In this document: piece after piece, positions 17,529 to 54,064 of the stretch
Layout: each line of letters opens with the position of its first letter
Numbering within the stretch: the first letter of the stretch is position 1
NCBI GenBank assembly: GCA_003555075.1
Contig: PWHW01000004.1
Location: 1 to 61,264, forward strand
Source: Candidatus Nealsonbacteria bacterium
Lineage (GTDB): Bacteria > Patescibacteriota > Minisyncoccia > Minisyncoccales > PWPS01
Length of the DNA stretch: 61,264 nucleotides
Direction: 5' to 3'
Program-made: the position numbers and the translations under genes
Notes under the pieces: model-generated
Database searches by the model: none
What the model was told of the DNA's origin: nothing
What the model saw: the letters and a program-made list of their open reading frames with translations, nothing else

Positions 17529-18026
17529 TTACTCTTTAAAGAACTGAAAAGCCCTTTTTCTTGTAAGCGGCTTGTCAAGACCAAAAGCTTTCCTGTAGAG
17601 TTCCGAAATTCTTGTTCTTGCATCTGTCTTGTTGAACCTCCTCAAATTGGAGAATTTGAACTCAAGCAATGTTACGGGCTTTCCCATGGCCATCCCTCTC
17701 AAACTTTCAATGCATTCTTTTTTCCGGCAACATGTGTACCCGCTTCCTACCGAGAAATCATTGAATGAGTAAGCCACAGAAAAGTACTTAACAGGCTCAC
17801 TCTTACAGAACGGACAAAGCATTTTTGTTTGCCTTGTTTCTCCTTGCCTTAAGAGCCACTCCAGATGCAATTGCAATTTGTTCTTATTTTTTCCTCCTTT
17901 CAGCTTGTTCTCTTTGAACCAACACAGGAAGTGGTAGTCCTTGAACATTAAAAGTTCCAAGGCTTCCCCCTTCCTTTTTCCGCTTTGGATCACATACCAC
18001 TGCGAAGGATCGTATGAATTTGACAA
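17529..18026 (-). CDS. Cys-containing hypothetical protein, paralog of 20868-21371
   Basis: MLCPFCK and YTCCRKKEC; AAGGAGGG RBS before the TTG start. Confidence 0.8.
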   Translation of the reverse strand: MSNSYDPSQWYVIQSGKRKGEALELLMFKDYHFLCWFKENKLKGGKNKNKLQLHLEWLLRQGETRQTKMLCPFCKSEPVKYFSVAYSFNDFSVGSGYTCCRKKECIESLRGMAMGKPVTLLEFKFSNLRRFNKTDARTRISELYRKAFGLDKPLTRKRAFQFFKE

Positions 18027-19249: not shown

Positions 19250-19759
19250 TCAAACTCTTACTATGACCGCCCCTATGGAAAATTCTTCTTTTAGAGTGGA
19301 TAATAAATGCTCTTTTGAAGAGAGCTCCACTTCCTTGAAAAGAAGGTTTGTTTCAAAGAAGGATACGGGGTGTAAAGGGCAAAGGAACAGAAGTGCTATT
19401 CCCAGATCGTCTTTTATTCCTATCATCATCCACTTATCACTCTTTATGAGCGAATCCTTGTAATTTGCCAGATTGTTCAGGTCCCCGGCAGAAGGAGTTA
19501 GAGATGCTTCGTTCTTCTCGGGGTGAAAGTGAAGGGAACCCTCCCTTTTGCCCGGCAAGTAAATGGATGATCTTTCCGCACTTTCCGGTGGCCACTCCGA
19601 TGTATTGCCGAGAGTTATCTTTCCATAATGCATTTTCTTGTCGCTTTTGTGAACTACGAAACCGGATTCATATCCGTAAAGAGCGGTCATTTTTCCTGCC
19701 TTCCTTACTTTTCTAAGGAAAACAACGTCCTTTAGTAGACGTTTCAAGGCTTCATTCAT
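19250..19759 (-). CDS. JAB/MPN-like metal-binding protein
   Basis: YESGF upstream Glu plus SLHFHP...TPSAGDL (HxH..SxxD). Start re-set to the ATG after AAGGAGGG. Confidence 0.65.
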   Translation of the reverse strand: MNEALKRLLKDVVFLRKVRKAGKMTALYGYESGFVVHKSDKKMHYGKITLGNTSEWPPESAERSSIYLPGKREGSLHFHPEKNEASLTPSAGDLNNLANYKDSLIKSDKWMMIGIKDDLGIALLFLCPLHPVSFFETNLLFKEVELSSKEHLLSTLKEEFSIGAVIVRV

Positions 19760-19818
19760 CGCTTTCCCTCCTTTAAGAGATGTTTTTACCATAACATCTC
19801 ATTGCTATCTTGTAAATA

Positions 19819-19843
19819 AAAAGCCTCTTTAGAAGAGGCTTTT
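19819..19843 (-). terminator. Intrinsic terminator at the proB stop
   Basis: AAAAGCCTCT-ttaga-AGAGGCTTTT. Confidence 0.65.
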
Positions 19844-20627
19844 AAAGGGTCAATTCGGTATCTGCTTTTTCTCCCCTTATGAATTTAAGAATGGTCTTTT
19901 CTTTTAGTCTTATCCCAGAAATTCCTGCTCTTTTCACCCCTCCTTCAAGAGCAAGCATCCCTTCTCTTATTTTTGTATCTATTCCTCCCATTCCTGTTTT
20001 CGATTTTCCCGACACATTGGGTCTTTCAAGACCGTTTATCTCCCTGATCAGCTTAGCTTCTTCTTTTTCGGGATTTCTGTCGTACACCCCTCCTTGATCG
20101 GTGAGAAAGAGGATCGCGTCCGCCTCGATGAGTGCCGATATCATTCTGGCAAGCTTATCGTTCTCCGAAATACCTTGTTGCATCCAGCGTATCTCTTCAT
20201 CAGAAACGGGGTCGTTTTCATTTACTATGGGGATCACGGGCAATTCAATGCAATCAAGAAGCCCCTTCCTTATGTTATTCCTCTCATTGCAGTTACTCCA
20301 GTTGGCATGAGTTACAAGCATTTGGCATGTTTCTATGCCATGTGTTTTGAATACTTCTCCCCATTTATTGAGAAGGTATCTGCCTCCGATCCCTGCCAAC
20401 TCCTTTTTATTCAATCTTTCAATTACGGAATGGAAGTTGGGACGATCCTTTAGCGCTTCTTTTCCCGCTTGTATTGCTCCGGAAGATACTATTACGATTC
20501 CTACTCCTTCCTTTTTTGCTTCCGAGACTTGATTTGCCACGTGGTAAAAGATGTTGTTGTTTAGCTTTCCGTTCTGCTTGTTGGACATCAAGGATCCCGT
20601 GCCGAATTTCAAGACCACTTTAAACAT
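19842..20627 (-). CDS. proB: Glutamate 5-kinase, short form lacking the PUA domain
   Basis: VVLKFGTGSL, IVIVSSGAIQAG, PIVNENDPVS..EI, ENDKLA, TDQGGVYDRNP, GMGGIDTKI. Confidence 0.9.
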   Translation of the reverse strand: MFKVVLKFGTGSLMSNKQNGKLNNNIFYHVANQVSEAKKEGVGIVIVSSGAIQAGKEALKDRPNFHSVIERLNKKELAGIGGRYLLNKWGEVFKTHGIETCQMLVTHANWSNCNERNNIRKGLLDCIELPVIPIVNENDPVSDEEIRWMQQGISENDKLARMISALIEADAILFLTDQGGVYDRNPEKEEAKLIREINGLERPNVSGKSKTGMGGIDTKIREGMLALEGGVKRAGISGIRLKEKTILKFIRGEKADTELTL

Positions 20628-20665
20628 TTTATCCCTCCCTTTTTTATTTTATAAAGAACTAATAT

Positions 20666-20730
20666 AAAAATCGCCCTTTTGGCGATCTTGTCATGGAGAG
20701 TCAAAAAGTTTTGCCTTAAAGGGCAAAACT
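20666..20730 (-). terminator. Two tandem terminator-like hairpins in the proB leader (attenuator)
   Basis: Minus strand: AGUUUUGCC-cuuuaa-GGCAAAAC-UUUUU (20730-20703) and AUCGCC-aaaag-GGCGAU-UUUU (20686-20666). Confidence 0.65.
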
Positions 20731-20796
20731 AATCAGACCCTCCGCATTAGGTGGTAGGATCGTGAAAACACCCTCTTTTGACTTTCTGATCTTCAT
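20716..20796 (-). CDS. Putative proB leader peptide (26 aa, contains Pro-Pro)
   Basis: Manual translation: MKIRKSKEGVFTILPPNAEGLISFAL*. The ATG lies at the predicted TSS and the stop codon is in the loop of the first hairpin. Confidence 0.55.
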   Translation of the reverse strand: MKIRKSKEGVFTILPPNAEGLISFAL

Positions 20797-20804
20797 TGGC
20801 GCAA

Positions 20805-20833
20805 ATTATTACTCAAAAATAATGATCTGTCAA
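20805..20833 (-). promoter_or_regulatory. Sigma70-type promoter of the proB leader
   Basis: Minus strand TTGACA-N17-AATAAT. Confidence 0.7.
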
Positions 20834-20847
20834 GGTTAAAAATAAAA

Positions 20848-20869
20848 AAAGGCACCAAAAGGTGCCTTT
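20848..20869 (-). terminator. Intrinsic terminator
   Basis: AAAGGCACC-aaaa-GGTGCCTTT, with a U-run on the minus strand, at the stop of 20868-21371. Confidence 0.7.
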
Positions 20870-21371
20870 ATTCCGCTTTGCAGAGAAGTTCAAAAATGTG
20901 ATCTTTTCTTAGCTTTTCAAGACCAAAAGCCCGCTTGAAAAGAGAAACCACTCTTTTTTTCTCTTCTTTGTCAGAGAAATGTCCCAAAGTAGAGAGTTTG
21001 AATGGCAATACTTTTACTCCGTTCTTTGAGGGTTTTATACTTCTTATACAATTTGGATCGTCACATGCCGTATATTCTAAGGAAACAAACGGCTCCCCGT
21101 TACGGCGAGTGAACATGAAATTCCTTATCTTGCTTTGTTTGCACTGAGGGCAAAGCATTTCAGTGTCCACTTTTTCTCCTTGAGTTAGAATCCAATTAAG
21201 ATGCAACTCAAAAGGACTTTTTCCGTTAGCCACATTTTTTGTTCTGCAAAGCTCCTTTTGCATTGACATTAAGCGACGATAATCAAGGAAGGCCAATTTT
21301 TCCATGGAAAGGCCTTTCATTTCTCTTCTCTTGAAAATATAGGGTCTAGAAGGACGATAATTGTCTTCCAT
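20868..21371 (-). CDS. Cys-containing hypothetical protein, paralog of 17529-18026
   Basis: MLCPQCK and YTACDDPNC; ATG at 21371 after an AAGGAGG RBS. Confidence 0.8.
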   Translation of the reverse strand: MEDNYRPSRPYIFKRREMKGLSMEKLAFLDYRRLMSMQKELCRTKNVANGKSPFELHLNWILTQGEKVDTEMLCPQCKQSKIRNFMFTRRNGEPFVSLEYTACDDPNCIRSIKPSKNGVKVLPFKLSTLGHFSDKEEKKRVVSLFKRAFGLEKLRKDHIFELLCKAE

Positions 21372-21975
21372 TCCAGATAACCTCCTTTCTTTCATTTTGT
21401 TGAATTGCAAAGAGAGTGCGCAATTTCTTCTCACAAGTTTAATTATTATGAATTCCAACCTCACTTGCTCTTTGGATGCTCATAATCATGGCAGCAGGGC
21501 ATTGCACCGTGCCTACCAAGGGAAATAGAGAACTCTTTTGGGTACTCAAACTTTGTTAATTTCCTGCTTGAATGATATGAGTTATTATTTTGAATTCTTG
21601 ATCTGTAGTAAATCAACTACAAGAGTGAGGTTTCTTTTCCTTTTCTTCCTCCGACTTGCTCTTGCAAGGAGAGGGAGAGAAAGAAAAAAAACTGGGACTC
21701 TTGTGAGCATAAATCTCGGAAGATAGATCGCTTTATAAGCGAGCTTGCCGATCACTCTCTTTTAAATGAATCGCAAGTCAATGCTACATCCCTCCTTTTT
21801 GTCTTTTCTGTAAAGAACAAATAATCCAAGAAACTTATAGTATAAAAAGGTTTCTCTGTCAAGTAATTTTACATGATCTTTCTAATTAAAGGGTTAAAAG
21901 ATGGTGATACCATTTTCAATCAAGAAAAAAAGGTGCTTTTGCAAGCACCTTATTCTTAGTCTCGAGATTTTTGAT

Positions 21976-53504: not shown

Positions 53505-54064
53505 TTCACTCTTCTTACGTACTTTCCCGTTTCCGTGTTTATCTCTATTGTTTCACCTTCTTCCACAAAAAGAGGAACCTCTATTTCTTTGTTCGTTTCC
53601 AGTGTTGCTGTTTTTGTTCCACCCTCGGCAGTGTTGCCCCTTATTCCCGGAGGAGCTTCTTTTATCTTAAGTGTGACCTTTGCGGGGAGGGATATACCGA
53701 TTATTTTTTCTTGAAACAAAAGGGCTGTAATTGTTGCTCCTTGAGTAAGATAATCTCCTTTCTCTCCCAACTGATCTTTGCTTAGCTTGAAACGCTTGGA
53801 AGAATCTCCTTCTTCGTGAAAAATGTATTCTCCTCTGCGAGAGTAAATAAAGACAGCATTCATTTTATCAATATCTGCTTCTTCTATCTCCTCGGAAGGA
53901 TGAAAATTCCTCTTTAATGTTGTTCCGGTACGCATATTTCTTAACTTTGTTTGCATTACTGACCTTCCTCTCGCTTTCACCTTATGAGAATGCTCCAGCA
54001 CTTCGTAAGGATCGTGGTTTAGTTCGATCATCTTTCCTTTCTTGATCTCGGTATGTTTAAGCAT
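53501..54064 (-). CDS. efp: Translation elongation factor P
   Basis: TKLRNMRTG, GDYL..G, LPAKV.L.I.EAPPGIRGNTA.GG.K.ATLET...VPLFVEEG. Confidence 0.95.
   Translation of the reverse strand: MLKHTEIKKGKMIELNHDPYEVLEHSHKVKARGRSVMQTKLRNMRTGTTLKRNFHPSEEIEEADIDKMNAVFIYSRRGEYIFHEEGDSSKRFKLSKDQLGEKGDYLTQGATITALLFQEKIIGISLPAKVTLKIKEAPPGIRGNTAEGGTKTATLETNKEIEVPLFVEEGETIEINTETGKYVRRVN

Follow-up and report, generated by a model that had tools for sequence, protein, structure and literature searches.

The window analyzed here is a 61,264-nucleotide (nt) stretch of DNA from Candidatus Nealsonbacteria (contig PWHW01000004.1 of assembly GCA_003555075.1), which carries on its minus strand a gene for a ProB-like amino-acid kinase (19842..20627, ATG at 20627) that is recognized by profile and structure matches and encodes 261 amino acids (aa) with no PUA domain. 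The 170-nt stretch from the promoter (20833) to this ATG (20627) is probably a cis-acting regulatory leader, and the function that its sequence makes likely is ribosome-mediated sensing of proline, through tRNA-Pro and elongation factor P (EF-P), that would control the kinase gene. All leader features described below lie on the minus strand. Transcription is expected to start from a sigma-70-type promoter (20805..20833), TTGACA (20833-20828)-N17-AATAAT (20810-20805), which agrees with the consensus at 11 of 12 positions and is the top promoter match within a 3.5-kb scan; orthologous leaders are also preceded by a TTGACA-N17 arrangement. Eight nt past the -10 box, with no Shine-Dalgarno (SD) sequence, an ATG at 20796 opens a leaderless or near-leaderless upstream open reading frame (uORF) of 26 codons (20716..20796) that encodes MKIRKSKEGVFTILPPNAEGLISFAL. 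Its only prolines are specified by the tandem codons CCA (20754-20752) and CCT (20751-20749), a Pro-Pro (PP) pair that we presume to be the sensor (20749..20754). A preliminary description of this DNA, made by a model from the letters alone, had pointed out the promoter, the ATG at the expected start and the tandem CCA-CCT, and all of these coordinates check out on the minus strand.

Downstream of the PP codons the leader is highly structured. A 19-bp hairpin, H1 (20695..20743; lower stem GGAGGGUC/GACUCUCC, upper stem AGUUUUGCC/GGCAAAACU; -22.2 kcal/mol, z = -5.0), has its base 5 nt past the PP codons, and the stop codon of the uORF (TAA, 20718-20716) lies within its loop. The top of H1 is a 9-bp hairpin (hairpin 1, 20730-20707) which together with its U-run spans 20703..20730 (-10.9 kcal/mol); the preliminary description had recognized the stop codon in the loop of this hairpin and its U tail, and UUUU indeed follows, with the U-run becoming partly paired once the full 19-bp H1 forms. 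The second hairpin and U-run that had been noticed ahead of the kinase gene are likewise present and correspond to a conserved intrinsic terminator, T2 (20661..20689; hairpin 20689-20667), which reads AAGAUCGCC-AAAAG-GGCGAUUUU followed by UAUAUU (-11.2 kcal/mol, z = -5.5). Directly 3' of T2 is a pyrimidine box, UUCUUU (20653..20658), which is conserved in four leaders and is predicted to pair with the SD as an anti-SD; the SD of the kinase gene, GGGAGGG, follows at 20633..20639. As a whole the leader folds better than 200 of 200 shuffled sequences (z = -2.8). The four-Cys protein gene that precedes the leader ends in an intrinsic terminator of its own (20848..20869; AAAGGCACC-UUUU-GGUGCCUUU, then a U-run; -14.7 kcal/mol, z = -4.8), so that the leader is isolated as a separate transcription unit. 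Between T2 and the SD we found no convincing promoter from which the kinase gene could be expressed; the sole candidate, which matches 9 of 12 positions and overlaps the ATG, was rejected. Two further candidates were also discarded, namely a second small ORF that overlaps T2 in the window (ATGACAAGA...TAG), which is not conserved, and programmed frameshifting at CCA-CCU-A, for which the slippery context is absent. An Rfam scan of the region with E values up to 10 returned no T-box and no other family, its sole hits (Atu_C8 and Phe_leader) being chance matches driven by the terminator of the upstream gene, and the window leader lacks the Stem I platform and the UGGN bulge of a T-box.

The kinase itself matches the AA_kinase domain (PF00696) with 111 bits and scores 169.9 bits against TIGR01027, below the cut-off of 186; that model has 363 positions and covers the C-terminal PUA part which this kinase lacks. 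The solved structures nearest to it are all glutamate 5-kinases or P5CS, with the E. coli glutamate 5-kinase at the top (E = 1e-27). The KxGT, SSGA and NEND motifs are retained, and the GDND of the E. coli enzyme is SEND in the kinase clade, with E155 invariant and a 5-residue insert preceding it. Named homologs come from Candidatus Wildermuthbacteria and Sungbacteria; the assembly to which the window belongs, rated complete, has 12 contigs with a total of 609,564 bp, and relatives have genomes of 0.3-1 Mb, in keeping with the earlier assignment of this DNA to the Candidate Phyla Radiation (CPR). Neither proA nor proC was found in this genome (G000) or in G004, G099 and G255, which make up four near-complete kinase-carrying genomes, and the same search did detect the canonical proA-proB-proC cluster of the positive control G407. 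The kinase is thus an orphan outside any recognizable proline pathway, which corrects the preliminary description on this point. Its occurrence is rare and patchy. Within the genus, one of the 13 other genomes has it; at the level of the class 9 of 401 genomes do (E <= 1e-20), and at that of the phylum 7 of 401 (E <= 1e-28), with its own genome included in the latter two counts. The genome also encodes EF-P (efp, minus strand, window 53507-54055; 178 bits, just below the TIGR00038 cut-off) and has tRNA-Pro genes with the anticodons GGG, CGG and UGG. The EF-P loop reads HKVKARGRS, and its tip residue is arginine or lysine.

To ask whether the uORF is conserved we compared 18 loci of the kinase clade, whose proteins share 39-57% identity. 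A search for related loci with the single kinase protein found none, and two alignment-based scans were dominated by canonical ProB proteins of other phyla, the only clade members among their matches being L088 and L091. Loci are designated here by L and genomes by G numbers, with W for the window; L003, L174, L173 and L186 belong to G004, G099, G255 and G609, respectively. A PP-containing uORF followed by a terminator is present at six of the 18 loci, including the window, where the leader peptide contains the motif LPPN. The other five peptides are MRKDSSLKREGLLVLPPTVESRR in G004 (L003), MNLGFVQFTPPRVSYK in L006, MRFLHIKKISIIKPPRV in L171, MVYRQKIQLVVPPEPTMVGERRFRVLSSTT in G099 (L174; it starts MVYRQKIQLVVPPEPT...) and MTNITKIKLIVPPSTPLQSV in G609 (L186). 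All six uORFs begin 4-9 nt past a -10-like box and are followed by one or more hairpins, an intrinsic terminator and then the SD. The peptides vary from 16 to 30 aa and have the PP pair as their sole common feature, and such likeness in PP alone is expected of regulatory leader peptides. Reading from the first ATG, each of the six leaders reaches its CCN-CCN pair in frame and without meeting a stop codon. The third positions of the two codons vary synonymously, the first codon being CCA or CCG and the second CCT in five leaders and CCC in one, and in an alignment of four leaders no block of the uORF other than A-CCR-CCT-A is invariant. The exclusive use of CCU or CCC for the second Pro codon, together with the presence of efp and of tRNA-Pro genes, provides supporting components for a proline sensor. 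At one further locus of the 18 (L173 of G255) a uORF with spaced prolines precedes a terminator.

The frequency of the PP pair is not accounted for by chance. In the window's own genome 7.2% of random ATG-initiated ORFs of 12-35 aa contain PP, and at this background the probability that at least five of six such uORFs carry the pair is 1e-5; among ten short ORFs of this genome that lie close to a strong promoter, the window uORF alone contains it. At least four distinct gene neighborhoods contain the leader unit together with the kinase gene. The four-Cys gene and the leader are separated in G004 by the insertion of a Ham1/RdgB-like gene that runs on the opposite strand (L003 2592-3131), which indicates that leader, promoter and kinase gene move together. 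The Pro-codon uORFs that the preliminary description had proposed to look for upstream of the closest homologs are therefore found at six of 18 loci, in at least four independent gene contexts. Features downstream of the PP codons are retained to different degrees. A terminator equivalent to T2 is conserved in all six leaders, with the stem AUCGCC/GGCGAU and the U-run kept in G004 and L006, and the position of the stop codon relative to the hairpins is fixed across the six. H1 is the sole structure that RNAalifold finds conserved among the window, G004 and L006, where its sequences differ at the same position and its base begins 5-6 nt past the PP codons.

A second line of evidence comes from L183, where a kinase ortholog of 42% identity is preceded by an Rfam T-box (L183 1183-1424; 94.4 bits, compared to a gathering score of 93) with GAA-CCU-A at the specifier position. 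The T-boxes of Bacillus proBA and proI likewise have CCU as their specifier (PMC3858371). The L183 lineage is probably CPR or metagenomic, and this T-box is independent evidence for control of the kinase clade by tRNA-Pro charging.

The preliminary description had also proposed to fold the leaders with the ribosome footprint masked. We did so with a footprint from -12 to +15 around the P site and in three modes, namely at equilibrium, with the RNA truncated just before the 3' arm of the terminator as a kinetic proxy, and with pairing restricted to RNA 3' of the ribosome. In L186, L174 and L171 this revealed a predicted ribosome-dependent switch. With the ribosome on the PP codons the 5' arm of the terminator is pre-empted with P = 0.98-1.00 in L186, 0.61-0.69 in L174 and 0.79 in L171, compared to 0.18, 0.04 and 0.01, respectively, with the ribosome at the stop codon. 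In L186 the structures can be assigned to the regions of a textbook attenuator: when the ribosome is on PP, region 2 (CAGAGCGUG...) forms a duplex with the 5' arm of the terminator (UACGCUCUG) at P = 0.98-1.00 and the terminator forms with P <= 0.13, and when the ribosome is at the stop codon the terminator forms with P = 0.95-0.96. With no ribosome on the L186 leader, a nested 1:4 and 2:3 hairpin adjoins the U-run. The 2:3 antiterminator duplex of L186 has a predicted energy of -17.2 kcal/mol (p = 0.001 compared to shuffled sequences). In silico, then, L186, L174 and L171 act as classical attenuators in which a PP-held ribosome favors the antiterminator and a ribosome at the stop codon favors the terminator. 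The modeled logic of the family is likewise classical, with a ribosome held at PP leading to read-through, and agrees with the T-box of the L183 ortholog.

These observations support the following model. The core of the leader would be the short uORF, probably translated leaderlessly, with its adjacent CCA-CCU codons. How fast the first ribosome passes CCA-CCU would depend on the supply of charged tRNA-Pro and secondarily on EF-P, and its speed would set which RNA structures form ahead of it; these would decide between termination and read-through before the kinase gene. Under proline limitation, with the ribosome held on PP, the gene would be on, and termination would result if the uORF were translated smoothly up to its stop codon or not translated at all. 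Translation of the uORF is an assumption of this model, and the direction of regulation, with expression on under proline limitation, is drawn by analogy from the orthologous leaders and the L183 T-box. The suggestion that a proB-like gene is subject to ribosome-mediated proline or EF-P sensing thus gains support from the conserved uORFs, the L183 T-box and the three modeled attenuators.

Several results weigh against this model, most of them from the window-type leaders of the window, G004 and L006. Ten of the 18 clade loci carry no leader at all. The window, G004 and L006 share a three-gene cassette that encodes the four-Cys protein, the kinase and a JAB-like protein, so that they do not represent three independent observations; the number of independent occurrences of the PP leader is about four, which is still far beyond chance. 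The missing proA and proC leave the rationale of making proline when proline is short incomplete. In the three window-type leaders, furthermore, masked folding, comparison to shuffled sequences and RNAalifold revealed no recognizable antiterminator. Whatever the state of the ribosome, T2 is predicted to form (equilibrium P of about 0.8-0.95), and kinetic-proxy folding likewise gives no stall-specific pre-emption of T2. No conserved partner for the 5' arm of T2 was found among them, since RNAalifold on sequences truncated before the 3' arm of T2 finds only H1, and a duplex between the 3' arm of H1 and the 5' arm of T2 was rejected as no better than in shuffled sequences. Finally, a ribosome with PP in its P site would cover the lower 5' strand of H1 and open 3-7 bp of the H1 base. 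This opening would free CUCUCC (20700-20695), which in the models pairs with the SD of the kinase gene with P = 0.41-0.65. On paper, therefore, a PP-held ribosome in the window would leave hairpin 1 and its U-run intact and free CUCUCC to pair with the SD, such that stalling would turn the gene off. Masked folding thus yields a switch in L186, L174 and L171 and none in the window, G004 and L006, and the exact switching logic, which the preliminary description had left open, is not supplied by any ribosome-dependent alternative to T2 that we could find in the window.

Three further pairings were considered as candidates for this role. The preliminary description had proposed that AGUCAAAAG (20783-20775), within the uORF, pairs with CUUUUUGACU (20708-20699); the positions are correct and the two segments are complementary with one extra U, but the antiterminator role was rejected. 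The pairing uses bases that lie 3' of the hairpin-1 U-run and are transcribed after it, so that it cannot pre-empt a terminator at hairpin 1, and it is not conserved. A 9-bp pairing of UUGCCCUUU (20726-20718) with AAAGGGCGA, in the loop and 3' arm of T2, was rejected as well; it exists only in the window, being absent in G004 and L006, and would constitute an alternative terminator rather than an antiterminator. The first 20 nt of the uORF are complementary to the 5' arm of T2 in the window, G004, L006 and L171, weakly so in comparison to shuffled sequences (p = 0.11, 0.14, 0.17 and 0.011, respectively), and a pairing between these segments, which would have to form across the ribosome, offers a weak lead only. 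The SD may be subject to control of its own. In four related leaders it is predicted to be paired mainly with a UUCUUU/CUCUUU box, such that without a ribosome it is unpaired with P = 0.12-0.31, and this predicted sequestration suggests a second, translational layer of control. Outside the window, the pyrimidine box (UUCUUU or CUCUUUU) occurs at equivalent positions in L003, L006 and L171, right behind the terminator U-run. Opening of the SD in response to stalling was rejected, as folding gave no consistent effect.

The behavior modeled for the window raises the question of whether the same parts operate by an opposite or different logic, in which the kinase is expressed only when the PP codons are translated efficiently, with ample Pro-tRNA and active EF-P. 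Mechanistically, once a ribosome had come to the stop codon, in the loop of hairpin 1, it would prevent the terminator, and a stalled ribosome would permit it and free the CUCUCC anti-SD strand. The stop codon within the loop of a U-run-bearing hairpin 1, the predicted pairing of CUCUCC with the SD under a PP-bound ribosome, and the failure to find a classical antiterminator in the window, G004 and L006 would all be explained, and at PPX motifs transcription is known to stay coupled to translation through EF-P (PMC5021804). However, the U-run of hairpin 1 is not kept in G004 or L171, T2 would halt transcription in both ribosome states, and L186, L174 and L171 as well as the L183 Pro T-box all predict induction on proline limitation; we consider the opposite logic unlikely, both in its general form and in this mechanistic version. 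A sensor made of RNA alone, in which the A-CCR-CCU-A block is bound by tRNA-Pro in the manner of a reduced T-box, or by a protein or ligand, and the ORF is incidental, would have to be reconciled with the absence of any Rfam family, of a Stem I platform and of a UGGN bulge. It would also have to account for six of six CCN-CCN pairs that share the frame of an ATG lying where transcription is expected to start, uninterrupted by a stop codon, for the fixed relation of the stop codon to the hairpins and for the complete ribosome-dependent switch that folding predicts for L186. Its attraction lies in the conservation of the block at the nucleotide level, flanking A residues included, in the CCU-plus-purine context that is shared with the specifier of the L183 T-box, and in the conservation of the T2 stem sequence and of the box after T2 among the window, G004 and L006. 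The gene for the four-Cys protein is syntenic at these three loci, although it is absent at L171, L174 and L186. On balance we regard a sensor of this kind as very unlikely.

It could also be argued that the locus is an independent small gene that produces a 26-aa micro-protein, or a small RNA (sRNA) ending at hairpin 1 or T2, with the kinase expressed by leak-through or from a weak promoter of its own. With a strong promoter and two terminators most transcripts would be expected to be 90-135 nt long, and sRNAs derived from attenuators and leader peptides that act in trans are known (PMC6614838, PMC7298713). Against this, the unit accompanies the kinase gene in at least four different neighborhoods, the peptides, of 16 to 30 aa, resemble each other only in PP, the interval from T2 to the SD contains no convincing promoter (the 9-of-12 match overlaps the ATG), and one ortholog, L183, has a Pro T-box in the same place. 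We accordingly give this possibility very little credence, and retain ribosome-mediated sensing of proline as the likely function of the leader.

Leader-peptide attenuation is classical for Trp, His, Phe, Leu, Thr and Ile/Val. As in the classical attenuators (trpL, hisL, pheL, leuL and thrL), a short ORF with cognate codons and an intrinsic terminator precede the structural gene, and in L186, L174 and L171 the 1:2, 2:3 and 3:4 helices are predicted to switch with ribosome position; trpL also has only two control codons. The leaders described here differ in that the control codons are for proline, the uORF lacks an SD and sits at the predicted transcription start, and the host has a CPR-type genome of about 0.6 Mb without the rest of the pathway. 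The window leader differs additionally in having no recognizable antiterminator.

Another parallel for the window may be found in the mgtP and mgtL leaders of Salmonella mgtCBR and mgtA, which have Pro codons in succession close to a stem-loop's base; two Pro codons are enough and the remaining peptide sequence is irrelevant, and stalling at low Pro-tRNA reshapes the downstream structure and raises expression, with EF-P also acting (PMC3641672). In the window, G004 and L006 the adjacent Pro codons are similarly placed close to a stem-loop base, such that a stalled ribosome would cover the left arm, and the predicted opening of the H1 base by the PP ribosome in the window matches the geometry of mgtP (PMC3641672). 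The two systems are not related in sequence or gene context, as the genes under control in Salmonella are those of an Mg2+ transporter and of virulence. Moreover, mgtP has an SD and sits in a long, multi-signal leader, whereas the window uORF is leaderless with no SD, and control of mgtA involves Rho, whereas the window has a canonical intrinsic terminator. With the Bacillus proBA/proI T-box the leader shares the type of enzyme that is regulated and the signal, tRNA-Pro charging (PMC3858371), but the window has no T-box, and its sensor would be the translating ribosome instead of direct tRNA binding. In synthetic HisL*-PPX reporters PP motifs within a leader peptide alter attenuation (PMC8129111, PMC5021804), and codon choice and tRNA-Pro abundance tune the PP effect, CCU and CCC being slow codons in E. 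coli (PMC8129111). These reporters are engineered E. coli constructs, whereas the window element is natural. In the literature we found no natural proline-codon leader peptide ahead of a proB gene, and nothing relevant on leaderless translation in Patescibacteria.

The genes around the kinase form part of its context at some loci. Fifty nt downstream of the kinase gene, on the minus strand (window 19250-19792), a gene that may be co-transcribed with it encodes a 180-aa protein with an HFHP...S..D (JAB/MPN-like) motif that matches none of the library families. The JAB-like protein is syntenic in G004 (L003 145-711) and L006 (3388-3909), with 40-46% identity, and fragments occur in L172 (1859-2259). 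Two diverged paralogs of the four-Cys protein, 33-34% identical, flank the kinase region on the minus strand (window 20868-21464 and 17529-18026), and neither Pfam nor NCBIfam has a match for this protein. Homologs of it lie directly upstream of the leader in G004 (L003 3158-3694) and L006 (1782-2276), and not in L171, L174 or L186. Farther upstream, a perfect 9-bp hairpin at window 21930-21951, between a gene for a 405-aa LysM/DPBB-like protein and the next gene, is terminator-like on both strands and is probably a bidirectional terminator.

Taken further, our results would allow a broader reading, which we put forward tentatively and judge less likely than not to hold in full: in CPR bacteria without ProA and ProC this kinase may be a dedicated proline-starvation enzyme that is wired to tRNA-Pro by three interchangeable devices, with the window type using an undescribed switching principle. 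The three devices would be a classical PP leader-peptide attenuator, a Pro T-box and the window-type leader, the last of which joins a leaderless uORF and a long hairpin to a fixed terminator and an anti-SD relay and does without a classical antiterminator. The role of the orphan kinase could then be salvage, signaling or the hand-off of gamma-glutamyl phosphate. Such leaders would add proline to the natural leader peptides of the biosynthetic type; proline is otherwise sensed by T-boxes in Bacilli and by mgtP/mgtL for unrelated genes. They would also imply that ultra-small CPR genomes retain sophisticated translation-coupled regulation and that leaderless uORFs can act as sensors. The window-type leader would be an example from nature that the standard attenuator model does not fit and from which a new switching logic may emerge, and an orphan glutamate-5-kinase-like enzyme tied to proline-tRNA status would turn a puzzling CPR gene into a testable question.

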